64,000 nucleotides of DNA, from the NCBI GenBank assembly GCA_002440965.1, contig DJWJ01000031.1:6348-70347 (forward strand), read 5' to 3'. The notes beneath the pieces are model-generated. The model searched no databases. It saw only the letters and a program-made list of their open reading frames with translations, and was not told where the DNA came from. Positions 10,596-61,250 of the stretch are shown here, piece by piece. The translations under genes were made by a program, and so were the position numbers. The stretch is from Candidatus Omnitrophica bacterium UBA6233. GTDB taxonomy: Bacteria > Omnitrophota > Gorgyraeia > Gygaellales > Profunditerraquicolaceae. Each line of letters opens with the position of its first letter. Positions within the stretch are counted from its first letter, which is position 1.

Positions 10596-11552
10596 ATGGC
10601 AGAGAATACAAACACGCTTGTCAGTGTAGTCATAGTTACCTGTGGCGTAGGCAATTATTTGTCAGATTGCCTTGATTCTTTGGAACCTCAAAGACAGGAT
10701 TTCAGGGAAGCGATAATTATCGATAATTCCCTCAATCCTGATTTTTTTAGAAGGATAAAAGAAAGATACTCTTGGGCGCAAATATATCCTAGCGAAGTTA
10801 ATTTGTATTATTGCGCCTCTTTGAATAAGGGAATAGAATTGAGCGGCGGAGAATTCATATTGTGTCTTAATGATGATGTTTCTTTGGCTAAGGATTTCAT
10901 TCATAACGCCTTGAAAGGTTTTTTTAATGATAATATAGGTATGGTTAGCGGCAAAATATTGCGAAAAGACAAAAAAACATTGGATAGCGCAGGGTTATTT
11001 TTGACTAATTATAGAACGGCAAAAGAAAGAGGCTATGCTTTGTCGGATACGGGAAAATTTGCAGAAGCGGGTTTTATTTTTGGCGCAAGCGGTTGTGCCG
11101 CATTCTACCGCAGGAAGATGCTTGAGTCGATTAAAGAGGGGAAGGATTACCTGGATACCGATTTACGCATGTTTTACGAGGATCTAGATGTATCTTGGCG
11201 TTCAAGCAGGCGCGGGTGGAAGTCTTATTATATTCCTGAAGCAATAGCTTATCATGCTCGCGGCGGATCTTTTCGCCCCGAAAGCGGATTAAATAAGCCA
11301 ATGGCTGTCAGGTATCTAAGCGACCGGTTATTTAGCGATTTAATCAAGAATCGGTATATTGTTATGCTCAAGAACGAGAGATTTTCCAGATTCATTCTGA
11401 ATATTGTTCCGATAGTTCTTTATGATTTATGTCTATGGGGGTATGTTTTTCTGTTTCGGCCAAAGGTAATTAAAATATTCATTTCGGATAGGAAATATTT
11501 TGCGCGCGCTTTAAGAAAAAGAAATAAGCTTATCAGGCTGGTCCGCGCTTAG
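10596..11552 (+). CDS. Glycosyltransferase family 2
   Basis: VSVVIVTCG...IIIDNS...LNDDV(DxD)...FYEDLD. 318 aa. Confidence 0.75.
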   Translation: MAENTNTLVSVVIVTCGVGNYLSDCLDSLEPQRQDFREAIIIDNSLNPDFFRRIKERYSWAQIYPSEVNLYYCASLNKGIELSGGEFILCLNDDVSLAKDFIHNALKGFFNDNIGMVSGKILRKDKKTLDSAGLFLTNYRTAKERGYALSDTGKFAEAGFIFGASGCAAFYRRKMLESIKEGKDYLDTDLRMFYEDLDVSWRSSRRGWKSYYIPEAIAYHARGGSFRPESGLNKPMAVRYLSDRLFSDLIKNRYIVMLKNERFSRFILNIVPIVLYDLCLWGYVFLFRPKVIKIFISDRKYFARALRKRNKLIRLVRA

Positions 11553-12659
11553 ATATGAAGATAATATTCCCAAGGCTAGCCACCAGATTGTGTTTATTTC
11601 CGGTAGGAAGAACGAGAAATCGACAGCATTGTGGAATAAGAAAATGCAGCACAATGAGAGTAATCCGGCAAGCTGCTTGTCTCCTGAATCTTTAATTTTT
11701 TTAAAGCCCCTCCTTAAAACAGAAATAACCAGCCATAAAAATGAAGCTAACCCCAGAATACCAGTCTCTGCTAGGATTTGTAAATAAGAGTTATGGGTGT
11801 ATCTGGAAGATGGAAGATTGAAATTTCCGATTCCTACTCCGTTGAGCGGATGTTTTTCGATGATTTTTATTGTCTCCATCCAGTAATCCCACCTGGTTAG
11901 CGCTGAAAAGGTTGGAGTAAACTGTTTCTTTTCGATTGCGCTTCGGGTAATAAATATTGATATAATAATCGTTAATACCGCCAAAAGGACAAAGAGCCTT
12001 CTTTTTTTAATCCCTCCCCGCATATAAAAGAATATTAATAATCCTCCCAACAAGCTTATCAGAGCGCCTAATGACTTAGTGAGAAATAAAGCCATTGATA
12101 ACGGGATAGCTAGCCAGATTAAAGGGCCGATGGTTAGGGTAAGGGGTAAGACCATGGCTAAGTATCCTCCCAAGGCATTGGGGGTGACGAAAGGGAAAAA
12201 TGTGCGTTTTTGAGCGATATAATCCAGGATGAAAGAGCTGGAAATATTTTGTTCAGCGATATAGCTTGTGAGGTGCTGGAAGCCTAAGATATATTGGTAA
12301 ATAGACAGAAGACTGATAATTAATCCGGAAGCAACCAGCCAGAAAATCGCGCGGTTTCTGTATTTGCAAGAAAATGACGCTCCTACGAGAAAAAGCAATA
12401 TTCCGGTTGCGTATTTATAGGATTCCCCTATGCTTATTGACTTATCCTGCGATAATATTAAAGAAATGGCGATTGACAATATAAATACAGATAATGGTAA
12501 TGCCAGATATTTGGTTAACCTTAAAGTTTTAGAGTTTCGCAACAGCCAAGCCAAAAGAAGCATAAATAAAAATGCGGAAAAGATAAAATTAGCATATGGA
12601 AAAGCAAGAGAGGATATGAAGGGGCGGATGAAAGTAAAAAATAATATTATGTCTGACAC
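11511..12659 (-). CDS. O-antigen ligase/polymerase-like (Wzy_C domain) polytopic membrane protein
   Basis: About 10 predicted TM segments. Periplasmic-loop motif HNSYLQILAETGILG matches the Wzy_C/WaaL signature (H-N-x-Y-L...E-x-G-x-x-G). Confidence 0.7.
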   Translation of the reverse strand: MSDIILFFTFIRPFISSLAFPYANFIFSAFLFMLLLAWLLRNSKTLRLTKYLALPLSVFILSIAISLILSQDKSISIGESYKYATGILLFLVGASFSCKYRNRAIFWLVASGLIISLLSIYQYILGFQHLTSYIAEQNISSSFILDYIAQKRTFFPFVTPNALGGYLAMVLPLTLTIGPLIWLAIPLSMALFLTKSLGALISLLGGLLIFFYMRGGIKKRRLFVLLAVLTIIISIFITRSAIEKKQFTPTFSALTRWDYWMETIKIIEKHPLNGVGIGNFNLPSSRYTHNSYLQILAETGILGLASFLWLVISVLRRGFKKIKDSGDKQLAGLLSLCCIFLFHNAVDFSFFLPEINTIWWLALGILSSYLSADQPDKLISFS

Positions 12660-12863
12660 TTGTTTAATTATACTTCCTTTTAGGTTAAAACGTCAAGATT
12701 TACTTATTTGTGTTTAAGCAAGGCTTGAGTTTGGGCTTTAAAATGATATAATATTGTCTGGCAAATCCATGAAAAATCAAGAATTCTTTTGTGGTTAATA
12801 GCATGTCTATATTCTAAAAGTAGCCACGTTTGAGTATACGGCATAAGGGAGAAATCCGCGGAT

Positions 12864-14420
12864 ATGGGAAAAGAATTTGGTAAAGGCAGGGGCTCCCTTA
12901 AAATATTCTTGTTGATTTCCCTGATTTTATTTTTTGCTCTGTTTTTGCGCTTGTATACTTTGAGCCAGAAGAGTTTTTGGTATGATGAAGCCTGTAGCCT
13001 GCAGTTTTCAGTTAACCATATCGGCGCAATTTTCAATGACCACTATTTAATCAGGCCGCTGTACTTCATTTTTCTTCAAATCTGGACGCATATTTTTGGC
13101 ATAGGAGAGTTTTTTTCCAGGCTGCCTTCGGTAATCTTCGGTTTTCTTTCCGTTTTGTTCATATATTATTTGGGTAAAGAACTGTTTGAGAAAAAAACCG
13201 GAATTATTGCCGCCTTTTTGCTGGCTGTCTCTTATTATCATATTGCCTGGTCGCAGCAGGCAAGGAATTATTCTTTACTGGTTTTCTTATGTATAATTTC
13301 CAGCTTAAGCTATATCCTGGCGGTTAAACGGGGCCGTTTATTCGGTTTCTGCATTTATTTCATTTTCACTGTTTTAGCGGTTTTGACCAATCCCATAGCT
13401 ATCCTATTGTTTTTGTTTCAAATGGCCATTATCTTTAAATTTCTCCATGTCGGCGAAAAAAGATGGAAGATCACGTTATCCCTGGTTTTTATTCCGATTT
13501 TTGCCCTGATTTTCTTGCTATATAAATTCAGAGTCTATGTGCTCCAGGATTTATCTGCAGCTGGACTACCGGGAGTGAACATACAAAGAGTTTGGGAGTT
13601 GTTTAATGTATTCAGTTCCGGTGGAGGGTATGTTGCGCAGGGGGCGACAGCCCATCAGGCAGGTTCTTCCGTAGTTTTTTTATCGTTCGTTATCGGTATA
13701 CTTTTCCTTGCTTTCTATATTTATGGTGTTTTTGCGAGTTTTCGGAATAAAAGAAAGAGTGCCATTTATTGTCTTGGATGGTTTTGGATCCCGTTTTTTG
13801 CCTTGATTTATCTGCAATTATTCGGTTTTAACTGTTTTTCTCCCAAGTATATGATATTTGCTTTGCCTGCTTATTACTTGATTATTGCAAGAGGCATGGC
13901 TTTTTTATCATCGAAAGTCACCTTGTTGATTGTGCTTATAGGGATTATTTTAAGCAGTTATTTCCATTTAAATTTTTACTATCATCCGCCGGATTATTCT
14001 TCGTGGAGAGAAGCAGCCGCCTATGTTGGAAAATATATAAAGGGTTCGGATAGGGTTATAATTATTCCTTCGGCGCAGATCACTCCTTTTTGGTTATATT
14101 ATAAGAGTTTTTCCGGGGATTTTTCATCCATCGGTAATGGAATTAACGGTAAGGTAAGGTTGGTTAATGGAGTCTGGCGAAAAGAGTTTTATGACGGAAG
14201 AAATCTTGTTACAGGAATTGGGCTTAATGGTGTTGGAGATTTTATCAGGGATAATGCCGATAAGAAATCCGATCTTTGGGTGATTGTTTCTAAATATTGG
14301 CCCGGTTTAAGAAATTACCAGATGTTTACGGAATATTTACAGAGTAATTATGTTTTTGTCGAGAAAAAAGAATTTAGTTTTGAAGGGGTTGAAATTTTAC
14401 GGTATAAAACCGCTTCATAA
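12864..14420 (+). CDS. GT-C family glycosyltransferase (PMT_2/ArnT-like, polyprenol-P-sugar dependent)
   Basis: N-terminal TM followed by the YDEA loop motif (DE). Multiple TM segments and a C-terminal periplasmic domain. 518 aa. Confidence 0.6.
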   Translation: MGKEFGKGRGSLKIFLLISLILFFALFLRLYTLSQKSFWYDEACSLQFSVNHIGAIFNDHYLIRPLYFIFLQIWTHIFGIGEFFSRLPSVIFGFLSVLFIYYLGKELFEKKTGIIAAFLLAVSYYHIAWSQQARNYSLLVFLCIISSLSYILAVKRGRLFGFCIYFIFTVLAVLTNPIAILLFLFQMAIIFKFLHVGEKRWKITLSLVFIPIFALIFLLYKFRVYVLQDLSAAGLPGVNIQRVWELFNVFSSGGGYVAQGATAHQAGSSVVFLSFVIGILFLAFYIYGVFASFRNKRKSAIYCLGWFWIPFFALIYLQLFGFNCFSPKYMIFALPAYYLIIARGMAFLSSKVTLLIVLIGIILSSYFHLNFYYHPPDYSSWREAAAYVGKYIKGSDRVIIIPSAQITPFWLYYKSFSGDFSSIGNGINGKVRLVNGVWRKEFYDGRNLVTGIGLNGVGDFIRDNADKKSDLWVIVSKYWPGLRNYQMFTEYLQSNYVFVEKKEFSFEGVEILRYKTAS

Positions 14421-14493: not shown

Positions 14494-15243
14494 ATGTTAA
14501 AAAATAAATTTAGCTATGAAAAACAATGTGGCATTTCTGTGATTATCCCGGTTAATAATGAAGCGGAGAATATAGATTATTTGTATGAAAGTTTAAGTAC
14601 GGAATTGGAAAAATTACGCATTGGCTATGAATTGATATTTATCGATGATTTTAGCTCTGATAATACCAAAGAAGTGATAAGCGCTCTCTCTGCACGAGAC
14701 AGGCATATTTGTTATTGCAGGCTTAGCGAAAGATCCGGGCAGACGTCAGCGATTTCAAAAGGGTTTCAGATGGCCAAGAATGATATAATTATAACTATGG
14801 ATGGTGATCTTCAATGCGATCCTGTATATATAAAAGATATGCTAGCTAAGCTTGATGAAGGCTTTGACGCTGTGCTTGGTTGGAGAGTTGTCAGGAAGGA
14901 TGGCGCTATAGTCAGGATATCTTCTTGTTTAGGTAATTCGATTGTCAACCTTATTTTCCAAACAAAATTTAGAGATATAGCCACGCCTTACAGGGTATTT
15001 AAAAAAAATGTTTTTCCAGTTAATTATAATTTGAATCGTGGTTATCATAGATTTCTCCCTTTATTTTTCAATAAAAGATGCAATTTTCTTGAATTTCCCA
15101 TTTGTTTTAAGAAGAGGTATCGTGGAAAATCGCACTATAATATCAGTAAACTTTTTAATTGTCTGGCAAGTATAATTCTTCTGTTAATTTCTAGGCATAG
15201 GCAAAGCAGAGGAGGTAGCCTTTATTTTCTACATAATGGATAA
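14494..15243 (+). CDS. GT2 polyprenol-phosphate glycosyltransferase (DPM1/ArnC/GtrB-like)
   Basis: ISVIIPVNNEAENI...FIDDFSSDNT...MDGDLQ(DxD). 249 aa. Confidence 0.7.
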   Translation: MLKNKFSYEKQCGISVIIPVNNEAENIDYLYESLSTELEKLRIGYELIFIDDFSSDNTKEVISALSARDRHICYCRLSERSGQTSAISKGFQMAKNDIIITMDGDLQCDPVYIKDMLAKLDEGFDAVLGWRVVRKDGAIVRISSCLGNSIVNLIFQTKFRDIATPYRVFKKNVFPVNYNLNRGYHRFLPLFFNKRCNFLEFPICFKKRYRGKSHYNISKLFNCLASIILLLISRHRQSRGGSLYFLHNG

Positions 15244-15264: not shown

Positions 15265-17082
15265 ATGAATATTCTGGGCTTAGCCTGTTTTTATCACGAT
15301 AGCGCAGCGTGTCTTTTACAAGACGGCAAAATTATTGGTGCCGTTGAAGAAGAGCGCTTTACGCGCAAGAAACACGATTCCAGTTTTCCCATAAATTCTA
15401 TAAACTGGTGTTTGAAAGCAGCGGATATAAAACCAAAAGATCTGGACTATGTCGTGTTTTATGATAAGCCCTTTATAAAATTTGAGCGGATTCTGGAAAC
15501 GTATCTTATGTATGCGCCATCAGGGGTCAGGCAATTTATTCAGGCCATACCTTTGTGGCTGAAACAGAAGCTTTGGATTCCGGATATCATTCGGAAAGAG
15601 CTGGATTTCGAGGGAGAAATCTTGTTTTCCGAACATCACCGTTCGCACGCCGCCAGCGCCTTCTACCCCTCGCCGTTTAAAGAGGCAGCTTTTTTGACTA
15701 TAGACGGAGTGGGGGAATGGGAAACAACAAGTTTTGGGGTAGGCAAAGAAAACGATTTGGAATTAAATTATTATCTTAAATTTCCTCACTCTTTGGGGTT
15801 GTTGTATTCCGCTTTCACGTATTATGCCGGTTTTAAGGTTAATTCGGGCGAGTATAAACTTATGGGATTGGCTCCTTACGGTGAACCGAAGTACTCCGGT
15901 TTAATTTTAGATAATTTGATTGATCTTAAAAAAGACGGTTCTTTTAAATTAGATATGAAATATTTTGGTTTTTGTAACGGTGTAAAGATGACTAATTGGA
16001 GATTTGAGAGATTATTTGGCGGGCCGCCGAGGAAACCGGAGACCGGAATCAGGGAAAAAGACATGGATATTGCCGCTTCTATCCAGAAGGTTACCGAAGA
16101 AATTATGTTGAGGATGGCTTCTTATGTGCATGAGGTTACAAAACAGAATAATCTTTGTCTTGCCGGAGGAGTGGCGTTGAATTGCGTTGGTAACGGCCGA
16201 ATCCTGCGCGAAAGCCCTTTTAAAGAGATATGGATACAACCGGCAAGCGGAGATGCCGGCGGCGCTTTAGGCGCAGCGTTTTGGGTTTGGCATAAGTATT
16301 TAGGCAACAAAAGGGAGCCGGATAAAAACTCTGGCAGGCAGGATAACTCTCTATTTGGGCCATCTTATAGCGATAACGAAATAGAAAGTTTTCTTAAGAA
16401 AGCAGGCGCGTCTTACAAAAAATTGCCCTTTTCAGAGATACCTGAAGTTGTTTCCGGCTTAATCATTCAGGGCAAAATTATAGGATGGTTTCAGGGGCGT
16501 TTGGAGTTTGGGCCTCGTGGTTTAGGCGCCAGGAGCATAATCGGCGATGCGCGCAATCCCGATATGCAGTTGAAATTGAACCTGAAAATAAAATACCGCG
16601 AGTCATTCCGGCCTTTTGCTCCTACGGTTTTAAATGATAAAGCTAGCGAGTGGTTTGAATTAGGTATTGAAAGCCCTTATATGCTTTTAGCTGCTTCTTT
16701 AAGGAGCGATAAGCGGATAGAAAATAAATCTCTATCAGAGGGGCTAAGAGGATTGGATAAAATGAAGGTTATTCGTTCGTTGATACCCGCAGTTACGCAT
16801 GTAGATTATTCAGCGAGAATCCAGACTATAAAAAAGGAAGATAATCCACTGTATTATGATACAATAAATCAATTCTATAGAAAAACTGGTTGTCCTGTAA
16901 TAATCAATACTTCGTTTAATATAAGGGGTGAGCCGCTTGTCTGCAGCCCGGAAGATGCCTTTAGGTGTTTTATGCGGACGGAAATGGATAATCTTGTGAT
17001 GGGAAGGTTTTTATTGGATAAAAAAGAGCAGGAGGCGGTTAATAATGGCGAGAATCGGCAGGAAGCATTTGAGCCCGATTGA
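15265..17082 (+). CDS. Carbamoyltransferase (NodU/CmcH/TobZ family)
   Basis: MNILGLACFYHDSAACLL N-terminus (Kae1/YgjD-like). C-terminal YrdC-like carbamoyl-adenylate domain. 605 aa. Confidence 0.85.
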   Translation: MNILGLACFYHDSAACLLQDGKIIGAVEEERFTRKKHDSSFPINSINWCLKAADIKPKDLDYVVFYDKPFIKFERILETYLMYAPSGVRQFIQAIPLWLKQKLWIPDIIRKELDFEGEILFSEHHRSHAASAFYPSPFKEAAFLTIDGVGEWETTSFGVGKENDLELNYYLKFPHSLGLLYSAFTYYAGFKVNSGEYKLMGLAPYGEPKYSGLILDNLIDLKKDGSFKLDMKYFGFCNGVKMTNWRFERLFGGPPRKPETGIREKDMDIAASIQKVTEEIMLRMASYVHEVTKQNNLCLAGGVALNCVGNGRILRESPFKEIWIQPASGDAGGALGAAFWVWHKYLGNKREPDKNSGRQDNSLFGPSYSDNEIESFLKKAGASYKKLPFSEIPEVVSGLIIQGKIIGWFQGRLEFGPRGLGARSIIGDARNPDMQLKLNLKIKYRESFRPFAPTVLNDKASEWFELGIESPYMLLAASLRSDKRIENKSLSEGLRGLDKMKVIRSLIPAVTHVDYSARIQTIKKEDNPLYYDTINQFYRKTGCPVIINTSFNIRGEPLVCSPEDAFRCFMRTEMDNLVMGRFLLDKKEQEAVNNGENRQEAFEPD

Positions 17083-17455
17083 GGATATGAAGAGATTCGG
17101 TATAACTATGGGGATGGTTTTTCTTGTTATTGCCATAATCGTTCTTCTCGGGAACAGATATAATCCTCTATCTATTTTCTTTGTGTCTTTTGTTTTCTTC
17201 GTTTTAGCTTTTCTCCGGCCGCTTATTTTAAAACCCATTTATGTATTTTGGATGAAGATGGCATTTTTATTGGGTTGGGTAAATACCCGGATAATTTTAA
17301 TTGTATTATTCTATACGCTTTTTACCCCAATAGGCCTTGTAATGAAGTTATTCAAGATGGATTTGTTGGATAGGGTTATTGAAAAGAAAAAGGAATCATA
17401 CTGGAAAAAGAAAGAGGAAATCGATAATCCAGATGGTTATCAAAGGCAATTCTAA
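17045..17455 (+). CDS. SxtJ-like small membrane protein
   Basis: 3-TM small protein immediately after and overlapping the carbamoyltransferase gene. The carbamoyltransferase/SxtJ/DUF5989 triad is recurrent. Likely true start is downstream (MKRFGITMG). Confidence 0.45.
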   Translation: MARIGRKHLSPIEDMKRFGITMGMVFLVIAIIVLLGNRYNPLSIFFVSFVFFVLAFLRPLILKPIYVFWMKMAFLLGWVNTRIILIVLFYTLFTPIGLVMKLFKMDLLDRVIEKKKESYWKKKEEIDNPDGYQRQF

Positions 17456-17470
17456 AAAGGATGGAAAATT

Positions 17471-17629
17471 ATGGGTAAGGCCTCAATTTTACGGGAATTC
17501 TGGGATTTTTTGCGTATCCGAAAAAAATGGTGGCTGGCTCCGGTAATAATTATATTATTTCTTTTAAGTATTTTAATATCTTTGTCGCAAACTAGCGTTG
17601 TCGCTCCCTTTGTATATACTTTATTTTGA
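17471..17629 (+). CDS. DUF5989 (SxtK-like) 52-aa membrane miniprotein
   Basis: AAAGGATGG RBS. ...RKKWWLAPVIIILFLL... shares the KKWWL.P...L motif with the paralog at 18510-18692. Confidence 0.5.
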   Translation: MGKASILREFWDFLRIRKKWWLAPVIIILFLLSILISLSQTSVVAPFVYTLF

Positions 17630-17706
17630 TAACAGCGGAGTCAACCCAGGTAATTATAGGATAGCGTTAGTCGCGCTAGAATTAAGCGAGGTTAATTATA
17701 AAATTT

Positions 17707-19781: not shown

Positions 19782-19789
19782 AGGCTATT

Positions 19790-27385: not shown

Positions 27386-27399
27386 TTATTTATAATACT

Positions 27400-52911: not shown

Positions 52912-55900
52912 CTATTATAAATTCAAAAGACATTTGGAGTCTAAAGGAGGATTCTACGCTTTATGCAGAGGCCTAAAATATATTTTATATTTATTTAGGC
53001 ATAGCGGAGCTTTGTTTCGCAGCCGAAATATTATCGAAAAAGGTAAGCTTAAGTTGGTATTTAACGGTCACGGAATTTCAATTTTCTGGGATAATATTGA
53101 AATTACCAAAAATGCCGGGTTAAATTGCGGCATAAAGATATCGGAAGCATGGACTGATTCCACGAAGGCAAAGTGGAAGGTTCTGGAGAGTGGGCCGGAT
53201 TTGCTTAAGTTCTCAGTTTGTTTCAAAAAATTGCCCCTAAGACAAATCTGGACATTAGGAGTAGATAGCCAGGAAATTTTCCTTTGGCATATAGATCTAG
53301 AAGTAAAATCTTCCATATTAATAGATGAACTGCGTTTTATAAATCAAGTTCGGCCAGTTTATAAGGCTTGGTTATCGGATTATCTACAAAATTATTTTCC
53401 CCGTTTAGACAATTGCTGGCATGATTTGAACGGTAATGAAGATGGATCGGTTTGTCTTGTAGGTTTAAGACATCCGAGGCAGGCAGATATACCTCGTTGT
53501 TTGGTTTTGGAAACGCAGGATGGTGTTTTGCCGGCTTTGATTCAGAATACCCCAAAACAACACGGCACTAATTTAATAGGTTTTAAGTTAATCAGGAAAG
53601 GCGTGGAAAGAAATTATTATCCGGGGATGCACAGTATTTTTTCCTGCCGGATAAATATTTTTATTGAGGATGAACCTTTGGATATAAAGATTGAGCATTT
53701 GCGTAGAAGTATTTTCGATAAATCTTTGGCTGCTAAGGCCGTAGAAGATAAAACTAGAAAAAAGCCGAGTGTTTCATTGGTTAATTTGCCTTGGAAGAGG
53801 GGAGGGAAATGGGGGGTGCGTGCCGGTTCGCGCTGGCCGCATATACTTGACGATAGCGAGACAAATTATTTGCCGTTTCCGTTCTTTCTGGCTTACGCTG
53901 CGGCATTGCTGCAGAAAAATTATTTTTCGGTCAGCCTTATTGACGCTATTGCAGAGCAGCTTGATGAAGAAGTTTTTTTGAAGAAAATTACCGGATTGAA
54001 CATTGATTTTCTGGTTGCGGAAACATCCACCCCGTCTTTTTATAATGATTTGGCTATTTTAAAGAAAATTCATTCTTCTTTGGGTATTCCGATAATACTT
54101 TGCGGACCGCACTTTGAGATTTACCAAACTCAGATTTTGAAAGATAACGATTTTATAGCTTATACGCTATTTGGAGAATATGAATTTACTCTACTTGAGC
54201 TTTTGGTTAGTTTGGCAGAGAAGAAAGATTTATCCGGGGTGAAGGGTTTAATTTGGAGAGCAGGGAGTGACGTTATCAAAAATCCGGCGCGGGAGGCTTG
54301 TGATATAAATCTTTTGCCTTGGCCTCTTCGGGACGCCTTGCCTATGGGAAAATACATGGATTTGCCTGGAGGATTGCCTATTCCTTCGGTTCAGATGCTG
54401 TCTTCCCGAGGGTGCCCTTTTAGGTGCACGTTTTGTCTTTGGCCGCAGGTATTTTATTCCGGGCGCGATTACCGGCCGAGGGATGTTGGGGACGTAGTAA
54501 ATGAAATGGAGTATTTGGTAAAGGTTAAAGGATTCAAATCTATATATTTTGATGACGATACATTCAATATTGGCAAAGAAAGGATTCTCGAATTTTGCAA
54601 ACAGGTTAGAGGCAAAGGATTGCAAAACATACCTTGGGCGGTAATGGCAAGAGCTGATTTAATGGACAAGGGAATCCTTTCCGAAATGAAATCCGCCGGC
54701 CTTTGGGCGGTGAAATATGGAGTTGAATCCGAAAATCAATTATCAGTTGATGATTGCGAAAAGAGACTGGACTTAAGAAAAGTTACTGAAATTGTCGGAA
54801 TCACCAAATCCCTCGGGATAAAAACCCATCTTACGTTCTGCTTTGGTTTTCCTGGGGAGACGGATAAAAGTATTCGGAAAACCATAGATTATTCATTGAA
54901 ACTCGACTCCGATTCCGCCCAATTTTCCATTCTTACTCCGTTTCCCGGAACGGAATTGTTTGAGCGGTTAGACAATGAGAATAGGATACTTACGAAGGAC
55001 TGGTCAAAATATGATGGCCATCACAGTTGTGTTTTTCAGCCAGATATTTTGACCGTGGATGATTTGGAAAAGGCAAAAGAGAAGGCTTGTGTTATTTGGG
55101 CTCAGAGTAAGCTGGGCAAGAGGCATCTTGGTTATGATTTTGGTTTATTGTTGCAATACCAAAGAATCGGCGGGTTGGCATATGCTTTAAAAAGGGCATT
55201 TCATTATTGCTCCGGGAGGGTTACCGGAGCAATGCGGAATTCCTATGAACGGATGTTTGGTTTTGCCAAGGGGGCGGGATTTCTTACGGCAAAATTTTTA
55301 AAATACATTATCGATGGTGATGCCCGGCGTCACTACCTGCAGCTTCAAGGGGTTCATAGCGGTGAATACGCCTTTGTCGGCCCCAATCACGTGCAGGTCG
55401 ATTTGACTAACAATTGCAACAATAATTGTCTGGCTTGCTGGTGTAATTCTCCGCTTTTAGAGGAGAAAGCTTTGGGTTTGGAAGCTAAGGAGCAAGAACT
55501 TCCATTGAATTTGGTTAAAAGGCTGCTTGATGAATTAGCTTCTATGAGGACAAAGGAAATTTATTTTTCCGGAGGAGGGGAGCCTTTTGTCCATCCTGAC
55601 ATTATGGAGATTCTTGAGTATGCAAAACATAAAAAATTCATCTGTTATGTGAATACGAATTTCACCTTGTTTGATAGGAATAAGATTGATAGCTTAGTTA
55701 GAATGAGGATGGATCATTTAACGGTAAGCACTTGGGCAGCTACTCCTAATACATATTCCATAACCCATCCCAATAAGGATAAATCCGTTTTTTGCGACAT
55801 CATTGACAATCTCAAGTATTTGAATTCCATAAAGAGGGGCAAACCGGGCGTAAAATTATATAATGTCATTTTTAACAAGAATTTTTTTGAATTGGAAGAT

Positions 55901-56533
55901 ATGATTGAGATAGCATCCCGGACAGGTTCCGAATTTGTCGAATTTACTTTAATCGACACGATACCGGGTAAAACCGAGGAATTACTTTTAGATTCACGCC
56001 AGATCGCAGAATTGCGTAATTTAGCGGAAAAGATTTCGTGTAAACTAGACAATGCGGGTTGTTATAAAGGAGTGAAGGTTTTGAATTTCAAATCATTCTT
56101 AAGGCGTATTGCCAGCGATTCCGACCTAAAAAAAGCGACATATGACCGCAACATTATCGATAAAATTCCCTGTTATGCCGGGTGGATTTTTAGCCGTATT
56201 ATGCCTAACGGTGATGTTAACGCATGTCTTAAGGCGCATAGGATTCCCATGGGTAATCTATATAAAGCAAGTTTCAGGGAGATTTGGAATGGCGACAAAC
56301 AAAGGTATTTCCGGAAAAAAACATTGGTTTACGAAAAAAACGATTGTTTCTTCAAGTCTATCGGAAATGATCCGGAAGTTCAAGAGGCAGGATGCTATAA
56401 GAGTTGTGATGATATAGAGAGAAATACTTCATTTCATCGAAAAGTCAGCAGCCTTAATTTATTTGAGAAGAATTTTGTCGGTATTTTCTCAAAGCTTAAA
56501 AGGGTGAAGATTCGAAATGGAAAAAAAATCTAG
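52895..56533 (+). CDS. Tri-domain fusion: Wzt-C-terminal-like repeat module + B12-binding radical SAM + radical SAM/SPASM
   Basis: aa 50-140 alignable with the Wzt extension repeats (..PLRQIWTLGV....FLWHIDLEV). CPFRCTFCLW (nt about 54413-54443). NNCNNNCLACW (nt about 55411-55441). CYAGW...DVNAC SPASM/twitch (nt about 56170-56240). 1212 aa. Confidence 0.7.
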   Translation: MNLRDNYYKFKRHLESKGGFYALCRGLKYILYLFRHSGALFRSRNIIEKGKLKLVFNGHGISIFWDNIEITKNAGLNCGIKISEAWTDSTKAKWKVLESGPDLLKFSVCFKKLPLRQIWTLGVDSQEIFLWHIDLEVKSSILIDELRFINQVRPVYKAWLSDYLQNYFPRLDNCWHDLNGNEDGSVCLVGLRHPRQADIPRCLVLETQDGVLPALIQNTPKQHGTNLIGFKLIRKGVERNYYPGMHSIFSCRINIFIEDEPLDIKIEHLRRSIFDKSLAAKAVEDKTRKKPSVSLVNLPWKRGGKWGVRAGSRWPHILDDSETNYLPFPFFLAYAAALLQKNYFSVSLIDAIAEQLDEEVFLKKITGLNIDFLVAETSTPSFYNDLAILKKIHSSLGIPIILCGPHFEIYQTQILKDNDFIAYTLFGEYEFTLLELLVSLAEKKDLSGVKGLIWRAGSDVIKNPAREACDINLLPWPLRDALPMGKYMDLPGGLPIPSVQMLSSRGCPFRCTFCLWPQVFYSGRDYRPRDVGDVVNEMEYLVKVKGFKSIYFDDDTFNIGKERILEFCKQVRGKGLQNIPWAVMARADLMDKGILSEMKSAGLWAVKYGVESENQLSVDDCEKRLDLRKVTEIVGITKSLGIKTHLTFCFGFPGETDKSIRKTIDYSLKLDSDSAQFSILTPFPGTELFERLDNENRILTKDWSKYDGHHSCVFQPDILTVDDLEKAKEKACVIWAQSKLGKRHLGYDFGLLLQYQRIGGLAYALKRAFHYCSGRVTGAMRNSYERMFGFAKGAGFLTAKFLKYIIDGDARRHYLQLQGVHSGEYAFVGPNHVQVDLTNNCNNNCLACWCNSPLLEEKALGLEAKEQELPLNLVKRLLDELASMRTKEIYFSGGGEPFVHPDIMEILEYAKHKKFICYVNTNFTLFDRNKIDSLVRMRMDHLTVSTWAATPNTYSITHPNKDKSVFCDIIDNLKYLNSIKRGKPGVKLYNVIFNKNFFELEDMIEIASRTGSEFVEFTLIDTIPGKTEELLLDSRQIAELRNLAEKISCKLDNAGCYKGVKVLNFKSFLRRIASDSDLKKATYDRNIIDKIPCYAGWIFSRIMPNGDVNACLKAHRIPMGNLYKASFREIWNGDKQRYFRKKTLVYEKNDCFFKSIGNDPEVQEAGCYKSCDDIERNTSFHRKVSSLNLFEKNFVGIFSKLKRVKIRNGKKI

Positions 56534-57980
56534 CTGTAATCCAATCGTTTCGGGGGCAGATATCCTTTTGGTGATACCCCCTCCTTTTTTTACTAGAATG
56601 CCGCATATAGGAGTGGCATATTTGTCGAGTTTTCTCAAGGCCAAAGGGTTTAAAGTCTCTGTTTATGATTTAAGCCTGAAGCTATATAATTGCGCGACAG
56701 ACGAACTGAAGGAATTCTGGCAGATCGATCTTCTTAATAAGTTATTTGTTACGGAAGCAGCCGATTCTGTTTATAAGAATTTTGAGCAGCAAATAACCAG
56801 ATTTGTGGAGGATGTGTTAGCTACCGATATTAAAGTAATAGGTTTTTCCGTGAATATTATAAGTATATTTTTGGCTAATCGCATAGCGATGGAAATCAAG
56901 AGGAGAGACCCGGGTAGGTTCATTATTTTTGGCGGACCAGGAACATATTTCAAGCATCCGCGTGAATTAACCGAATCCGGATTTGTCGACTTGTATATAA
57001 TAGGGGAAGGCGAATTGACTCTTAGTAACATTTTAATTTCTTATTATTCGGGAAAAAATATAGAAACAGCTCCAGGGATATTGTCGGGGAATGATCTAGG
57101 CAGGTGCCAGGCCATCCCCGGGCAGACTATACATAACCTAGATACAATACCTCCGCCGACATTTTCAGAGTTCAATCTTGGTGACTACAATCAGGGTAAC
57201 GAATATAAACCGTTGCCTTTGCTTTTAAACCGTGGTTGTATTAATAGGTGTTCATATTGTATTGATTGTATAATGTGGCCGAAATACAGATCCAGATCCC
57301 CAAAACATATTATGGCCGAGATTGATTATCATATTAACAAAAACAATACCAAAGCTTTCGAGATTCTTGATTTGACTTGTAATGGTAATCTTGGACAGCT
57401 TTCAAAAACATGCGGTTTAATTATCGACTCAGGTTATAAGTTTGATTGGGTCAGTTATGCAGTCATCCGCAGGAATATGGATTTTGCGCTTTTGAGAAAA
57501 ATGAAACAGGCCGGTTGCAATACTTTGATATATGGCGTGGAAAATGGTTCGGATAGAATTTTAAAGAAGATGGGGAAAAGATATACGGCAAAAGAGGCTT
57601 CTGGGGTAATCCGGACTACACATAAAGCCGGGATCCGGGTGAATATAAATATCATCGTGGGGTTCCCGGGAGAAACGGAGAAAGATTTTGAAGATACAAT
57701 TGATTTTATCCGCGAGAACAAAGATTATATCAATGAGGTTACAAATGTATCAGGCTGCACATTATTCCCTGAAGCAGAGATTGGGATAAACAGTAGGAAA
57801 TACGGTATAGTCTGGGATGAGCATAGCGAGCCGATGCTGTATGAGGATTCAAATGGACTAAACCGGTCCGGAAGAATTGAGCGTGTGGCTAGAATGGTAG
57901 AGGCAATCAGCGAATTAAACCTGTCCAAGTCTATAATTAACAAGCCGGCTCTCGCCCCAATCATGAGAGAAGCTAGATGA
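56517..57980 (+). CDS. B12-binding (class B) radical SAM enzyme
   Basis: N-terminal B12-binding fold (ILLVIPPPFF...KGFKVSVYD). NRGCINRCSYCIDC is a CxxxCxxC motif. 487 aa. Confidence 0.75.
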   Translation: MEKKSSCNPIVSGADILLVIPPPFFTRMPHIGVAYLSSFLKAKGFKVSVYDLSLKLYNCATDELKEFWQIDLLNKLFVTEAADSVYKNFEQQITRFVEDVLATDIKVIGFSVNIISIFLANRIAMEIKRRDPGRFIIFGGPGTYFKHPRELTESGFVDLYIIGEGELTLSNILISYYSGKNIETAPGILSGNDLGRCQAIPGQTIHNLDTIPPPTFSEFNLGDYNQGNEYKPLPLLLNRGCINRCSYCIDCIMWPKYRSRSPKHIMAEIDYHINKNNTKAFEILDLTCNGNLGQLSKTCGLIIDSGYKFDWVSYAVIRRNMDFALLRKMKQAGCNTLIYGVENGSDRILKKMGKRYTAKEASGVIRTTHKAGIRVNINIIVGFPGETEKDFEDTIDFIRENKDYINEVTNVSGCTLFPEAEIGINSRKYGIVWDEHSEPMLYEDSNGLNRSGRIERVARMVEAISELNLSKSIINKPALAPIMREAR

Positions 57981-58091: not shown

Positions 58092-59282
58092 ATGTCTATG
58101 CGTATACTTATGGTTCATCCTCATGATATTTATTCTTCAGCTGAACCTTGGACAAGAAGGGTTGTTTCTCTTGCCAGTGAGTTGGCCAGAAAGGGCAATG
58201 AGGTAAAGTTAGTTTATTTTTCTCTTTCCTATAAATATGGAGAAAGCCGTATTGCAGATAATTGTCAGGCAATATCGTTTCCAAGGAATATTACCCCCCA
58301 GGTTTTTATCCGAGATATTCGTTCTTTGGTATCGTTAGCCAGATGGGCGGATATCATTCATTTCCAAAAGTGCCACTACTACTCCGCCTTACCCGCAGTA
58401 ATCGCAGCCTATCTTTACAATAAGCCTTTGCATTATGATTGGGATGATTGGGAGGAAATGATTTGGTATGAATCCTGCGGGAAATCGGTGCATTCCCGCT
58501 TCATTGGTTTTTTCTTTAAGATACTGGAACGTTTTTTGCCTGTATTGGTTGATTCCGTATCCGTTTCCAGCCGGAATCTCGGGGATTTATCTGTTAAATT
58601 TGGAGTTAGTCCGAAATGTCTTTATTCTGTGCCGGTAGGGGCGGATTTGGAGCAATTTAACCCCGGAGTTGACGGATCGGGAATAAGAAAACGGTATAAT
58701 ATCAATGATTCCCTGGTTCTTTATTTAGGCCAGCTCCACGGAGCGCAATATATCGATATTTTTATAAAAGCAGCAAGAATTGTAATAGACAGATACCCGC
58801 GGGTTACTTTTATGATAGTAGGCGAAGGTTTTATGGAAAGATCTCTTAAAGAATTAGTTCAGGGGATTGGAGTGAGCAGGAATTTTATTTTTACCGGTTC
58901 ATTTCCCCGTGAAGACATTCCCGGATGTATTTCTGCCGCCGATATCTGTGTAGCTCCTTTTAAGAAGACAAAAGTTACTATCTGCAAAAGCCCTCTTAAG
59001 ATTGCCGAATATCTGGCTTCAGGCAAGCCAATTGTGGCAAGCAATGTTGGAGAGGTGGAAAGGATGATTTGGGATGCGGGTGTCTTGGTTGAACCCGGAG
59101 AAGCTGAGCCGTTCGCAGAAGGCATACTTAAGCTTCTCAGTGATAGCCGTTTGAGGCAAGATTTGGGGAATAAAGCAAGAAAAAGAGCCGAAGAGACGTA
59201 TAATTGGAAAGTTTCGGCACAGACCTTGTTGACTGCTTATGAAAGATCCCTTAACCGAAGAGATAACCATAATTCAGCATAA
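58092..59282 (+). CDS. Glycosyltransferase family 4
   Basis: GT-B fold. C-terminal KIAEYLASGKPIVASNVGE...EPGEAE. 396 aa. Confidence 0.7.
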   Translation: MSMRILMVHPHDIYSSAEPWTRRVVSLASELARKGNEVKLVYFSLSYKYGESRIADNCQAISFPRNITPQVFIRDIRSLVSLARWADIIHFQKCHYYSALPAVIAAYLYNKPLHYDWDDWEEMIWYESCGKSVHSRFIGFFFKILERFLPVLVDSVSVSSRNLGDLSVKFGVSPKCLYSVPVGADLEQFNPGVDGSGIRKRYNINDSLVLYLGQLHGAQYIDIFIKAARIVIDRYPRVTFMIVGEGFMERSLKELVQGIGVSRNFIFTGSFPREDIPGCISAADICVAPFKKTKVTICKSPLKIAEYLASGKPIVASNVGEVERMIWDAGVLVEPGEAEPFAEGILKLLSDSRLRQDLGNKARKRAEETYNWKVSAQTLLTAYERSLNRRDNHNSA

Positions 59283-59283
59283 G

Positions 59284-60378
59284 ATGAAGATCATATTCAT
59301 TACTCGTGAAGGATACAGGTTGGCCGGAGCCAGAGTCCGATGCTATAATTTTTCCAGGGGCCTTATGAAATACGGGATAGAATCAGAGGTTTTCTCGTTT
59401 GCGGATACCTTGGGAGCCAGAGACGGAGAAGGCGAATCCGCCATGGGCATTGCGGAGAAGATAAAATTAAATTATCTGGCTTTTAAGAGGCTGATTAAGG
59501 AAAAGAACAGTATTTTTTGCATTCAGCGTTTCAATTATCATTCTTTTGCTCCATATTTGGGGCATTTATTCCTCCGGAATAAAATCATTTTTGATCTTGA
59601 TGATTGGGAAATGCGCGAGAACCCAAAGTACTATTTTGGTTTTTATCCCAGTTCCAAGGCGCATTTTTGCGCGCGTGAGATCGCCAAAAGAAGCGTTTTC
59701 TGTATTTCAGCCAGCAGGTTTTTGCAGCATTTCCTGGGCCGATTTAACAGGAAAGTTCACTATCTTCCTTCCGGAGTCGATACGCAATTATTCAATCCCG
59801 CCGAAAATATTCCTGCCGCAGAGAAAATAGTCATTTCTTGGATAGGGACTTTTAATAAAATGGAATACATCGAGAATATAGATTTTGCTTTACGTTGCTT
59901 TGTTAAATTAAGAAAAAAACATAAAGACATCCATCTTGATATAGTAGGGGATGGAATCTATAAAGATAGCTTGGTCAGGCTGGTTACTAGATTCAATGAT
60001 TCAAATGTTAGGATTAAAGACTGGATTGCTCCTGATGAGATGCCTATTTATCTTCGTGGAATTCAGATTGGTATTCTTCCCGTAAGAAGAAGCAATAGTT
60101 TTAATCTTTCGAAAAGCCCGACAAAATTATTTGAGTATATGGCGATGCAAAAGCCGACGGTATGTAGTGCGATCGGGGAAGCGATGGATATTGTTAAAGA
60201 TGGCGATAACGGGTATCTGGCTTGCGATGCGGATATGTTTATCAAGAAAATGGGATATTTGATTGATAATTCCAGCCTTAGAAAACAGATGGGGGCCAGG
60301 GCAAGGGAAAGCGTAGAGGATAAATATTCTTTGGGAGTATTGTGTGGCCAATTTAAGGAAATATTGGAGAGTATTTGA
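59284..60378 (+). CDS. Glycosyltransferase family 4-like (GT-B)
   Basis: MKIIFIT... C-terminal LFEYMAMQKPTVCSAIGE...DNGYL. The track ORF begins earlier at 59239 and would overlap the previous gene; ATG 59284 directly follows its stop. Confidence 0.6.
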   Translation: MKIIFITREGYRLAGARVRCYNFSRGLMKYGIESEVFSFADTLGARDGEGESAMGIAEKIKLNYLAFKRLIKEKNSIFCIQRFNYHSFAPYLGHLFLRNKIIFDLDDWEMRENPKYYFGFYPSSKAHFCAREIAKRSVFCISASRFLQHFLGRFNRKVHYLPSGVDTQLFNPAENIPAAEKIVISWIGTFNKMEYIENIDFALRCFVKLRKKHKDIHLDIVGDGIYKDSLVRLVTRFNDSNVRIKDWIAPDEMPIYLRGIQIGILPVRRSNSFNLSKSPTKLFEYMAMQKPTVCSAIGEAMDIVKDGDNGYLACDADMFIKKMGYLIDNSSLRKQMGARARESVEDKYSLGVLCGQFKEILESI

Positions 60379-61250
60379 TGGCTGGGATTTCGATTATAAT
60401 CCTGACATATAATAACGCTGCATTTACAAAACGGTGTCTAGTTTCCGTATTCGCCCAGAATTATCAAAATCCGGAAGTTATTGTCGTGGATAACCATTCG
60501 AGCGATGGCACGATTGAAATGATTAAGCGGGATTATTCGCAGGTTATTTTGATCGAAAATAATATTAACCTAGGGGCAAGTAAGGCTAGAAATCAGGGTA
60601 TTAGTGTTGCGAATGGTGAATGGATTTTGACATTGGATAGCGACGTTGTTTTAGAAAAGGATTTCTTGAGTAGATTCGATTCGCTAAGCAGCGGTTTCGC
60701 TGCAGATACTGCCATGGTTCAGCCGAACGTTTTTAGTTTTGACGGTAAGGCCATCTATTCTCAGGGGATATATTTAACAAAGTTCAGGAGATTTTATGAT
60801 TTAAACCGGGGTAAACCGGATTCTTATATCAGCCCGAAGAGAAAAAAAATCATTGGTCCTTGTTCTGCCGCCGCTTTTTATCGCCGCAGCGCGCTCAATC
60901 AATTAAAAGAAAATACCGGTTATTTTGACGAGCGTTTTTTCTTTCTGGTAGAGGATGTTGATTTAGCCTGGCGAGCCAGTAAATCCGGGTGGAAAACAAT
61001 TTTTGTCCCCGAACTTAAGTGTTATCATTGTGGTAATGGGTCCCGGACCGGCAAAAAGCTAAGACGATTTTTATGTTCTCGCAATCGTATCCTGATGATT
61101 AATAAGAATGAAAGCTTTTTAGGAAAGATTTTTGTTTGTTTAATCAGTCTGCCTTATGAGTTGCCCAGATTTATTTTTAGCTATCTAGATATAGGAGAAT
61201 GCCATATTGATTATTCTGTTTTGGGAAATAAAACAAGAGTTAAAGCATAG
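60375..61250 (+). CDS. Glycosyltransferase family 2
   Basis: ISIIILTYNNAAF...VVDNHSSDGT...LDSDVVL (DxD). 291 aa. Confidence 0.75.
   Translation: MMAGISIIILTYNNAAFTKRCLVSVFAQNYQNPEVIVVDNHSSDGTIEMIKRDYSQVILIENNINLGASKARNQGISVANGEWILTLDSDVVLEKDFLSRFDSLSSGFAADTAMVQPNVFSFDGKAIYSQGIYLTKFRRFYDLNRGKPDSYISPKRKKIIGPCSAAAFYRRSALNQLKENTGYFDERFFFLVEDVDLAWRASKSGWKTIFVPELKCYHCGNGSRTGKKLRRFLCSRNRILMINKNESFLGKIFVCLISLPYELPRFIFSYLDIGECHIDYSVLGNKTRVKA

Follow-up and report, generated by a model that had tools for sequence, protein, structure and literature searches.

Why would a locus that appears to build a surface glycan encode eleven radical S-adenosylmethionine (SAM) domains, and what would bring such enzymes to their substrate? 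The question is raised by Candidatus Omnitrophica bacterium UBA6233, in which a block of genes occupies positions 10596-61250 of a stretch of 64,000 nucleotides (contig DJWJ01000031.1, positions 6,348 to 70,347; hereafter the window, to which all coordinates of the block refer). A preliminary description of this DNA had interpreted the block as one ATP-binding cassette (ABC) transporter-dependent glycan supercluster of about 50 kb. We find that the block most likely builds a surface sugar polymer via a known export route, and that its most distinctive feature, absent from that description, is a domain, here called W, common to the exporter ATPase Wzt and to a radical SAM protein. The genes concerned and the four copies of W are the following (GT, glycosyltransferase; aa, amino acids).

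45941-47110, + strand: GT4, first gene of the core (Pfam); adjoins the WecA-like gene in metagenome loci, median identity 51%
47103-48086, + strand: WecA-like polyprenyl-phosphate N-acetylhexosamine-1-phosphate transferase, putative initiator (PF00953 Glycos_transf_4, E 2.3e-31)
48079-49380, + strand: amine-oxidase-type FAD protein (PF01593, PF13450), position conserved in the core
49328-50152, + strand: Wzm ABC-2 permease (PF01061; best NCBIfam match galactan Wzm/RfbD)
50149-52911, + strand: Wzt ATPase, 920 aa (PF00005; best NCBIfam matches TagH and galactan Wzt)
50857-51453, + strand: W repeat 1 of Wzt (aa 237-435; hmmsearch domain E 2e-47)
51574-52227, + strand: W repeat 2 of Wzt (aa 476-693; domain E 7e-52)
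52267-52902, + strand: W repeat 3 of Wzt (aa 707-918; domain E 2e-66)
52895-56533, + strand: 1212-aa fusion of W, a B12-binding-like domain, a class-B radical SAM domain and a radical SAM/SPASM part (PF04055 twice, PF13186, PF02310)
53027-53662, + strand: W domain of the 1212-aa protein (aa 45-256; domain E 1.3e-61)
56517-57980, + strand: B12-binding radical SAM protein, 487 aa, core; conserved 3' of the W-bearing radical SAM gene
58092-59282, + strand: GT4, core (Pfam), conserved in metagenome loci
59239-60378, + strand: GT4 (Pfam)
60375-61250, + strand: ordinary GT2, last gene of the cluster (Pfam)

The best NCBIfam model for the candidate initiator was WecA (85.8 bits), which scored better than MraY and below its own cut-off of 326 bits, and the FAD protein gave a weak match to UDP-galactopyranose mutase. 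The genes for Wzm and Wzt overlap. In Wzt, the nucleotide-binding domain comprises residues 1-235 only and is followed by the three W repeats; residues 241-920 gave no Pfam match at E ≤ 5, neither to Wzt_C nor to another family. The W similarity first surfaced in an all-against-all BLAST, as a resemblance between a segment of Wzt and the N-terminus of the 1212-aa protein, and the W domain of the latter matches each of the Wzt repeats with E values of 1e-5 to 1e-8. The domain spans about 215 residues, is rich in tryptophan (2.9% vs 1.3% in the proteins of the window) and had no Pfam match at E ≤ 1 among 29 domain members.

The profile of the four window copies was searched against 1.84 billion representative proteins by exhaustive hidden Markov model (HMM) search; the exhaustive mode was required, as a word-index search with the same alignment returned two proteins only. 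This search put the W family at 561 representative clusters with E ≤ 1e-3, of which 463 had E ≤ 1e-10, and all members with a named source came from Candidatus Omnitrophota. Among the best 150 clusters, 85 contained a Walker A motif at the N-terminus followed by 2-7 tandem copies of W, with protein lengths rising in steps of about 235 + 215n residues; other fusions among the same 150 joined W to radical SAM/SPASM proteins, to B12 radical SAM proteins and, at the C-terminus, to GT-C glycosyltransferases of the PMT_2 type.

Scanning metagenomes with the last W repeat of Wzt as seed yielded 80 loci, and neighbourhoods were counted over the 40 of at least 12 kb. The W-bearing Wzt gene was followed by radical SAM genes in all 40 and adjoined Wzm in 39, and in 33 a neighbouring radical SAM protein also carried a W domain. 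The recurrent order was GT4, WecA-like gene, flavoprotein, Wzm, Wzt, W-B12 radical SAM, SPASM and/or B12 radical SAM, and GT4. Median identities to the window were 39-51%, and core genes of syntenic loci mostly shared 35-58%. Judged by this conservation, the segment 45941-59282 is a conserved core that probably extends to 61250, and the 35 kb upstream (10596-45730) are a lineage-variable, putative decoration part. The supercluster proposed earlier is therefore contiguous, as described, but not an indivisible unit. In many related loci the 1212-aa protein is split into a W-B12 radical SAM protein of about 750 aa and one to three SPASM radical SAM proteins of about 400 aa, and this fusion or fission would link the two radical SAM activities.

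The window contains 66 open reading frames (ORFs) of at least 100 aa. As the preliminary description had stated, the block is co-directional: from 10596 to 61250 all genes are on the + strand with the sole exception of the ligase-like gene, and they overlap or are separated by gaps of mostly ≤60 bp. The GC content is 0.36-0.44, the GC skew is positive throughout and no break in composition was seen within the block. Since a chimeric assembly would have refuted the interpretation, as had been pointed out at the outset, the same proteins were looked up exactly and found on 17-18 contigs from ENA, JGI and Logan. The contig stretches that were fetched are colinear with 6927-45448 at 99.7-100% identity, and one ENA contig of 133.8 kb covers the whole window at constant offset. 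Two contigs of the Omnitrophota metagenome-assembled genome (MAG) STD1_202 share 91-92% DNA identity with it. Chimerism was thus rejected, as independent assemblies reproduce the block colinearly; it is a genuine, contiguous envelope-glycan locus, which 10596 and 61250 delimit well. A Logan contig of 2 kb (L012) joins 9821-11480 to 6456-6105 in reverse orientation, which is due to a mis-join of short reads or else to a variant rearranged close to the DUF6602 gene. The block opens with two genes of which the second is the antisense one.

10596-11552, + strand: ordinary GT2, 318 aa (PF00535), 32% identical to the GT2 at 60375
11511-12659, - strand: membrane protein of the Wzy_C (O-antigen ligase/polymerase) family (PF04932, E 7.7e-20), about 9 hydrophobic segments

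The two ordinary GT2s matched HpsN, PgaC and EpsD-type models of NCBIfam, not ArnC-type ones. The Wzy_C protein could be a ligase or a polymerase. Its length differs among assemblies (382, 295 or 214 aa); phase variation was considered and rejected, the difference being a gene-caller artefact on 100% identical DNA. A Wzx-type flippase was not found, no ORF having a Pfam match to Polysacc_synt, MATE or MOP. Nearly every gene label given earlier was confirmed by Pfam, including the WecA-like initiator, Wzm/Wzt, the O-antigen-ligase-like protein and the three GT4s.

The radical SAM enzymes account for the second peculiarity of the locus. In addition to the two core proteins listed above, they are the following, srS1 to srS5 being small paralogs.

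19790-21211, + strand: B12-binding radical SAM protein (PF02310, PF04055; best NCBIfam models BchE and HpnJ, below cut-off)
23203-24198, + strand: small radical SAM protein srS1, 331 aa (PF04055)
27400-28377, + strand: small radical SAM protein srS2 (PF04055)
28388-29371, + strand: small radical SAM protein srS3 (PF04055)
32227-33207, + strand: small radical SAM protein srS4 (PF04055)
34465-35448, + strand: small radical SAM protein srS5 (PF04055)
41819-42850, + strand: radical SAM protein, 343 aa (PF04055)
43580-44599, + strand: radical SAM/SPASM protein, 339 aa (PF04055, PF13186)

The count of 11 radical SAM domains made earlier was borne out: PF04055 recognised 11 domains in 10 proteins (genes starting at 19790, 23203, 27400, 28388, 32227, 34465, 41819, 43580, 52895, with two domains, and 56517), and the CX3CX2C motif is kept in all 11. 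The highest score of any of them was 207.6 bits, obtained with HpnJ (cut-off 577.6) by the first half of the 1212-aa protein; AprD4, DesII, BtrN and BlsE were among the weaker matches of the cluster. The five small paralogs share 36-41% identity with each other, and their cluster motif is preceded by about 20 residues only. They gave no Pfam match to SPASM, and their four invariant C-terminal cysteines suggest a twitch-like auxiliary cluster. Their best relatives of solved structure were SkfB, CteB, viperin-like proteins, PqqE, anSME and MoaA; the matches to BlsE and BtrN were weaker.

A scan of 185,579 species genomes placed the relatives of the small paralogs mostly in Omnitrophota, in MAGs labelled Planctomycetia, in Deltaproteobacteria and in Bathyarchaeia, often in several copies and beside genes for B12 radical SAM proteins, DegT aminotransferases, short GT2s and GT-Cs. 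One locus (L014) shares synteny with the sub-block 18942-29371, with identities of 45-60%, and the Omnitrophota loci L093 and L094 contain the same mix of GT-C, polyprenyl-phosphate GT and radical SAM genes. Within 10 kb of the small radical SAM matches, the HMM search found no W domain in the genome loci, as was to be expected with Wzt more than 15 kb distant from them. In L162 and L163 (13763-20611), seven tandem small radical SAM genes come right after Wzt and a large radical SAM gene, an array larger than that of the window. In the Bathyarchaeia loci L040, L043, L044, L056 and L083, all from archaeal MAGs, relatives of the small paralogs recur in pairs with a B12 radical SAM protein of about 459 aa that is itself a relative of the 1212-aa protein's first half; this pairing may be older than the glycan context of Omnitrophota.

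The variable part also encodes a putative polyprenyl-phosphate-sugar branch, namely GT-C enzymes and short GT2s.

12864-14420, + strand: GTC1, PMT_2-type GT-C (PF13231, E 1.4e-12)
21254-23206, + strand: GT-C-fold membrane protein, 650 aa, distantly YfhO-like (AlphaFold2 model, pLDDT 80, pTM 0.85)
29411-31015, + strand: GT-C-fold membrane protein, 534 aa (AlphaFold2 model, pLDDT 89.7, pTM 0.89)
38464-40002, + strand: GTC2, PMT_2/PMT GT-C (Pfam), 54% identical to GTC3
40184-41767, + strand: GTC3, PMT_2 GT-C (Pfam), tandem paralog of GTC2
14494-15243, + strand: PPGT1, short GT2, polyprenyl-phosphate-sugar synthase-like (PF00535; best NCBIfam models PgfS and ArnC)
17707-18426, + strand: PPGT2, short GT2 (PF00535; best NCBIfam models PgfS, ArnC, AglJ and dolichyl-phosphate hexose transferase)
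42884-43570, + strand: PPGT3, ArnC-like short GT2 (PF00535; ArnC best with 128.7 bits, below cut-off)

In profile searches the 650-aa and 534-aa proteins had no Pfam match at E ≤ 5 and no match among PDB sequences, and they were assigned from their models. The top PDB matches of the 650-aa model in Foldseek were all GT-Cs (AglB, AftD, STT3, Pmt4, ArnT, AftA). The protein has an identical NCBI counterpart, which comes from a MAG of Candidatus Omnitrophota, and only 17 homologs were found, of which two of the most distant contain PF09586 (YfhO). The 534-aa model had 27 PDB matches at E ≤ 1e-3, all GT-Cs (STT3, DPY19, PglB, AglB, AftA, ALG9/12, Pmt4), with ArnT next at E 2.2e-3; by fold its nearest neighbours are the oligosaccharyltransferases STT3, PglB and AglB together with DPY19, and its C-terminal globular domain resembles that of AglB (3vu0, TM-score 0.57 on the target). 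An invariant DD..R motif follows the first transmembrane (TM) helix, the consensus of the alignment shows no evident WWDYG-type motif, and hhalign gives a probability of 65% for similarity to the PMT_2 proteins of the window. None of its 35 homologs has a Pfam domain, and the few that are named come from Omnitrophota. With three members recognised by Pfam and two by predicted structure, the locus encodes five GT-C-fold proteins, at the upper end of the three to five estimated earlier, and the tandem paralogs noted at the time are GTC2 and GTC3.

The short GT2s (228-249 aa) had as best NCBIfam matches only polyprenyl-phosphate GTs (ArnC, PgfS, AglJ, the haloarchaeal dolichyl-phosphate hexose transferase, PpgS), so they can be called polyprenyl-phosphate-sugar synthases by best similarity, not by membership. 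The earlier view of three DPM1-like synthases hence agrees with the best matches and lacks the backing of curated cut-offs. Domain and fold searches nevertheless assigned the GT-C and DPM1-like genes to the expected families, not to unrelated ones. The number of GT2s had been overstated: apart from the DPM1-like genes three had been listed, and Pfam and NCBIfam give two ordinary and three short ones, five in total and not six. In L093, genes for Polysacc_deac_1, YdjC and flippase-like LPG_synthase_TM proteins (4711-5535, 8380-9237 and 16937-17878) accompany the radical SAM, GT-C and short GT2 genes, a combination reminiscent of deacetylation steps of the ArnD and HpnK types.

Fusions of PMT_2 enzymes with W connect this branch with the core. 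L177 has the order PMT_2-W, short GT2, six radical SAM genes with an acetyltransferase gene, and PMT_2-W, and in L176 a short GT2 gene is located beside a PMT_2-W fusion. By their gene order, these arrangements would tie the small radical SAM enzymes to the polyprenyl-phosphate-sugar/GT-C branch, and this branch is linked to the ligand of the Wzt repeats because the W domain is common to PMT_2-W and Wzt. In L178 (5082-11171) a PMT_2-W fusion adjoins a B12 radical SAM gene flanked by CobD/CbiB genes and by an ABC importer (FecCD/Peripla_BP_2), a neighbourhood that looks like a context of cobalamin supply.

The tailoring genes that had been listed, i.e. an epimerase, a DegT aminotransferase, a carbamoyltransferase, two AsnB-like amidotransferases, a PP-loop ATPase, the FAD protein and two SGNH hydrolases, were all found again, together with three small membrane protein ORFs (SxtJ and two DUF5989) that had been overlooked.

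15265-17082, + strand: NodU/CmcH-type carbamoyltransferase (Carbam_trans_N E 5e-106, Carbam_trans_C E 1e-68; best NCBIfam model NodU)
17045-17455, + strand: SxtJ-family small membrane protein (PF19588, E 3.6e-8)
17471-17629, + strand: DUF5989 small membrane protein, 52 aa (PF19451, E 7.6e-23)
18510-18692, + strand: second DUF5989 protein, 60 aa (PF19451, E 3.2e-13)
18942-19781, + strand: PP-loop ATPase with QueC-like N-terminus and SGGTDS motif (PF06508, E 2.8e-6); 54% identical ortholog in L014
24198-26099, + strand: AsnB-like amidotransferase 1 (PF00733, GATase_7; best NCBIfam model XrtA/PEP-CTERM amidotransferase)
26159-27385, + strand: SGNH/GDSL hydrolase 1 (PF13472), putative membrane anchor in an N-terminal hydrophobic segment
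31019-32230, + strand: DegT/DnrJ/EryC1 sugar aminotransferase (PF01041, E 2.7e-70; NCBIfam PseC, LegC and ArnB, below cut-off)
33214-34455, + strand: SGNH/GDSL hydrolase 2 with TPR and N-terminal membrane anchor (PF13472, E 5e-16)
35509-36261, + strand: 250-aa protein with signal-peptide-like N-terminus, no Pfam match above threshold
36376-38247, + strand: AsnB-like amidotransferase 2 (PF00733, GATase_7)
44792-45730, + strand: SDR sugar-nucleotide epimerase/dehydratase (PF01370, E 6e-61; best NCBIfam model TviC, a UDP-GlcNAcA 4-epimerase, below cut-off)

AsnB-like protein 1 starts with MSGF and therefore has no Cys2, the nucleophile of glutamine-dependent asparagine synthetases, and ICGF at residues 17-20 of the second suggests a mis-set start or a propeptide. 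The trio of carbamoyltransferase, SxtJ and DUF5989 genes is widely conserved. The second DUF5989 gene stands alone, 7 bp downstream of a sigma-70 consensus without mismatch. The tailoring complexity is unusual, as had been remarked, when compared with textbook loci, but it recurs within the lineage.

Upstream of the block lies a mobile and defence island (249-8348) with a GC content of 0.33, below that of the cluster. This island, the genes just before the cluster and the two sequence signals that stood out are as follows.

249-1274: IS110-family transposase, upstream island
1327-1881: Thoeris ThsB TIR-like protein, ThsA not recognised beside it
3576-4874: Shedu SduA_C protein, upstream island
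6419-7231: DUF6602 protein, upstream island
7287-8348, - strand: rve-type integrase, upstream island
9137-9337: cold-shock protein, just before the cluster
9349-9385: strong terminator with a 17-bp stem, after the cold-shock gene
9505-9915: CxxCxxCC protein, just before the cluster
9927-10556: RRM_1 protein, 209 aa, just before the cluster
18476-18503, + strand: sigma-70 consensus TTGACA-16 nt-TATAAT, 12/12 match, in a gap of 515 bp

On the 3' side the cluster is followed by genes for a coiled-coil protein, an HTH-cupin regulator, a weakly M20 peptidase-like protein and acetate kinase. The promoter and terminator scans gave counts not above those of shuffled sequences, and the only standouts were 18476-18503 and 9349-9385; the former would be a possible start of a radical-SAM-rich transcription unit and is taken as a lead only. 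Rfam models, applied at their gathering thresholds, matched nowhere in the window, hence no cobalamin or other riboswitch.

How, then, could these genes act together? We consider it probable, with due caution, that the locus works in two layers, an ABC-exported polymer that is tailored by radical SAM enzymes and is decorated in the periplasm. The substrates and the compartments named for the single steps are our proposals. At the core, the WecA-like enzyme would prime polyprenyl phosphate, GT4 and GT2 enzymes would extend the lipid-linked polymer at the cytoplasmic face and Wzm/Wzt would export it. By way of the W domain, exporter and radical SAM tailoring enzyme would meet on a single lipid-linked glycan that is yet to be exported, and the W-bearing radical SAM protein would then tailor the polymer or its terminus, in the genomic and logical place of a terminator of the WbdD type (PMC3482155). 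In the second layer, the three ArnC/GtrB-like GT2s would load polyprenyl phosphate with sugars, and the SDR and DegT enzymes, the AsnB-like pair, the PP-loop protein and the carbamoyltransferase with SxtJ/DUF5989 could remodel monosaccharides while nucleotide- or lipid-linked, a stage at which the five small twitch-like radical SAM enzymes, two further small ones and one B12 enzyme might also act. The five GT-Cs would transfer the products onto the exported polymer in the periplasm, where the two anchored SGNH proteins may add or remove acyl groups, and once complete, the glycan would be joined to its acceptor by the Wzy_C protein. DprE1/E2 and ArnD are precedents for sugar remodelling at the lipid stage. 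The preliminary description had likewise predicted a cytoplasmic polymer, ABC export and periplasmic decoration from undecaprenyl-phosphate sugars, with which the gene content and the precedents agree, the chemistry being a matter of conjecture.

W is read here as a polymer-binding domain. Its carriers are a cytoplasmic ATPase, cytoplasmic radical SAM enzymes and GT-Cs in which it would be periplasmic, since solved enzymes of the PMT_2 type have their C-terminal soluble domain in the periplasm; the lipid-linked polymer is the only entity that occurs in both compartments. A strong enrichment in tryptophan is typical of sugar-binding surfaces. It is conceivable, and put forward tentatively, that in Omnitrophota radical SAM C-H chemistry, in part by B12-dependent enzymes, on polyprenyl-linked polysaccharides or on polyprenyl-phosphate monosaccharide donors, together with a lineage-specific W family of carbohydrate-binding domains that targets these enzymes, gates export by Wzt and guides periplasmic GT-Cs, amounts to an undescribed device that couples modification, export and decoration and is without a characterised counterpart. 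Possible reactions are C-methylation, epimerisation, oxidation and ring rearrangement.

Several results weigh against this two-layer scheme. None of the radical SAM proteins of the cluster reaches an NCBIfam cut-off, which makes it impossible to assign them a reaction, and the best solved relatives of the small paralogs, SkfB and CteB, modify peptides. W had no relative of solved structure in a profile search of PDB sequences and no detected similarity to a known carbohydrate-binding module; that it binds the polymer is what we infer from its domain architecture only. The short GT2s are below the NCBIfam cut-offs and have no C-terminal TM helices like those of GtrB and ArnC. No flippase of the GtrA, SMR, MATE or LPG_synthase_TM type was found among the window ORFs of at least 100 aa or the small ORFs in gaps, so that the window lacks one part of a three-component system; the SxtJ and DUF5989 proteins are the sole candidates for a flippase-like role, because they are the only small membrane proteins without assigned function. 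The block may be transcribed as several units, given the promoter-like sites at 12.7 and 18.5 kb, and co-function of the two layers would thus rest on co-localisation and on the GT-C-W fusions found elsewhere.

The sharing of W could also mean that it is a homotypic docking module, the W of the radical SAM protein binding the Wzt repeats and tethering the enzyme to the exporter; once tethered, the radical SAM enzymes could work either on precursors or on the end of the chain that is bound to the transporter. Tandem copies on Wzt and a single copy on the neighbouring radical SAM protein, as in 33 of the 40 loci, would suit heterotypic docking between repeats, and so would the dissimilarity in sequence of W to known carbohydrate-binding modules. 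The PMT_2 fusions are hard to reconcile with this idea, as they are encoded apart from Wzt and their C-terminal W would, by family knowledge, be periplasmic and out of reach of the cytoplasmic Wzt; with the tryptophan enrichment also pointing away from docking, we regard it as unlikely. Somewhat less likely still is a juxtaposition of separate systems, in which an ABC polymer core would stand next to GT-C/polyprenyl-phosphate-sugar systems that glycosylate proteins or lipid A, with the radical SAM genes making one or more unusual monosaccharides for the latter. The conservation of the core beside a variable upstream 35 kb and the two promoter-like sites are what one would expect of such a juxtaposition, PMT_2/ArnT-like families do include protein- and lipid A-modifying enzymes, and the predicted fold of the 534-aa GT-C is nearest to STT3, PglB and AglB. 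Yet in the same phylum PMT_2 GT-Cs are fused to a W of the Wzt type, small radical SAM genes come directly after Wzt in L160, L162, L166 and L168-L170, L101, L113 and L151 have a core lengthened by short GT2 and AsnB genes, and the terminator scan found no strong terminator between 18942 and 61250.

A third possibility, that the small SPASM/twitch-like radical SAM proteins, and perhaps the AsnB-like ones, are peptide or lipid maturases and that the product is a modified peptide, a glycopeptide or a tailored lipid rather than a glycan alone, appears highly improbable to us. It would account for the solved relatives SkfB, CteB, PqqE and anSME, for the match of the AsnB-like proteins to a lasso-peptide cyclase model and for the weak matches of the B12 radical SAM proteins to lipid and hopanoid models. 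The small paralogs align to SkfB and CteB, however, only from about residue 100 of these proteins, so they lack the N-terminal region of about 100 residues, which we take to be a peptide-recognition (RRE) domain. No small ORF in the gaps was a candidate for a precursor peptide, the DUF5989 pair being the only small gap ORFs with a family match; lipid-synthesis genes are absent from the block, scores for curated maturase families are far below cut-off, and in relatives GT-C and polyprenyl-phosphate GT genes bracket the radical SAM genes.

The frame of the two-layer scheme, ABC-dependent glycan assembly and GT-C decoration, is known. As in the ABC-dependent O-polysaccharide systems of E. coli O9a, K. 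pneumoniae O12 and Aquifex aeolicus (WzmWzt), there are a WecA-type start, cytoplasmic polymerisation by GT-A/GT-B enzymes, export by Wzm/Wzt, a C-terminal extension on Wzt and a Wzy_C/WaaL-like protein that could serve for ligation. Wzt proteins of the window type differ in carrying 2-7 tandem domains of about 215 aa instead of Wzt_C, and the gene for Wzt is followed by radical SAM genes, one of them encoding Wzt's own domain, rather than by a WbdD-type kinase/methyltransferase. Carbohydrate-binding modules are documented on Wzt, and those of GT-Cs bind the O-polysaccharide backbone (PMC9445017, PMC11127046). In three-component periplasmic glycosylation, synthase GT2s are paired with GT-C transferases (PMC11127046, PMC8035078), and such systems can act on ABC-exported O antigens, some of the GT-Cs bearing glycan-binding modules (PMC11127046). 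The window resembles these systems (GtrA/GtrB/Gtr*, ArnC/ArnEF/ArnT, CsbB/GtcA/YfhO, Citrobacter youngae ORF12-15) in its synthase-like GT2s and GT-Cs, one of which is a distant relative of YfhO, and departs from them in having no flippase that we could find, three synthases and five GT-Cs in a single locus, short GT2s that end without TM helices, and radical SAM genes interleaved with the GT2/GT-C pairs.

The nearest overall analogue may be mycobacterial arabinogalactan (summarised in part in PMC11127046), with its WecA-type start, cytoplasmic polymer, Wzm/Wzt-type export and several periplasmic GT-Cs that use polyprenyl-phosphate donors, one donor being remodelled while lipid-linked (DprE1/E2). 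Galactan-export models are among the best NCBIfam matches of Wzm and Wzt, and the flavoprotein weakly resembles UDP-galactopyranose mutase. The phylum, on the other hand, is unrelated, all these matches are below curated cut-offs, and in the place of DprE1/E2, Emb or Aft, of which the window has no orthologs, there are radical SAM proteins. Radical SAM chemistry on sugars and aminosugars is established (BtrN, DesII, AprD4, GenK, HpnJ, BlsE), and BtrN works with an aminotransferase in butirosin biosynthesis; DegT genes co-occur with the small paralogs in many loci. The known enzymes, in contrast, act on small molecules in antibiotic or hopanoid pathways, and the scores obtained here are far below their cut-offs. 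We know of no carbohydrate radical SAM enzyme that belongs to a Wzm/Wzt pathway for surface glycans or carries a domain of the exporter type, and searches of the literature on radical SAM enzymes with Wzt, O antigen or Omnitrophota found no description of the module. Three features are not described in the searchable literature: the conserved placement of radical SAM enzymes right after Wzt, the W family common to exporter, radical SAM enzyme and GT-C, and the density of radical SAM paralogs interleaved with polyprenyl-phosphate GT/GT-C pairs.

Surface glycans govern the encounters of a cell with its hosts and prey, with phages and with surfaces. The Omnitrophota are abundant nanobacteria that have not been cultured and may depend on hosts, and to our knowledge essentially nothing is known of their envelope. 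If the proposed scheme is true, Wzm, the W-repeat Wzt and the W-bearing radical SAM protein would constitute a marker module for the main exported glycan of the phylum, and W would be a new domain family, comprising 561 or more sequence clusters, whose fusion partners make its ligand directly testable. The locus and its relatives would also represent a large untapped set of radical SAM enzymes, probably acting on carbohydrates under anoxia, a field in which very few activities have been characterised, and these enzymes could supply new sugar chemistry for glycoengineering.

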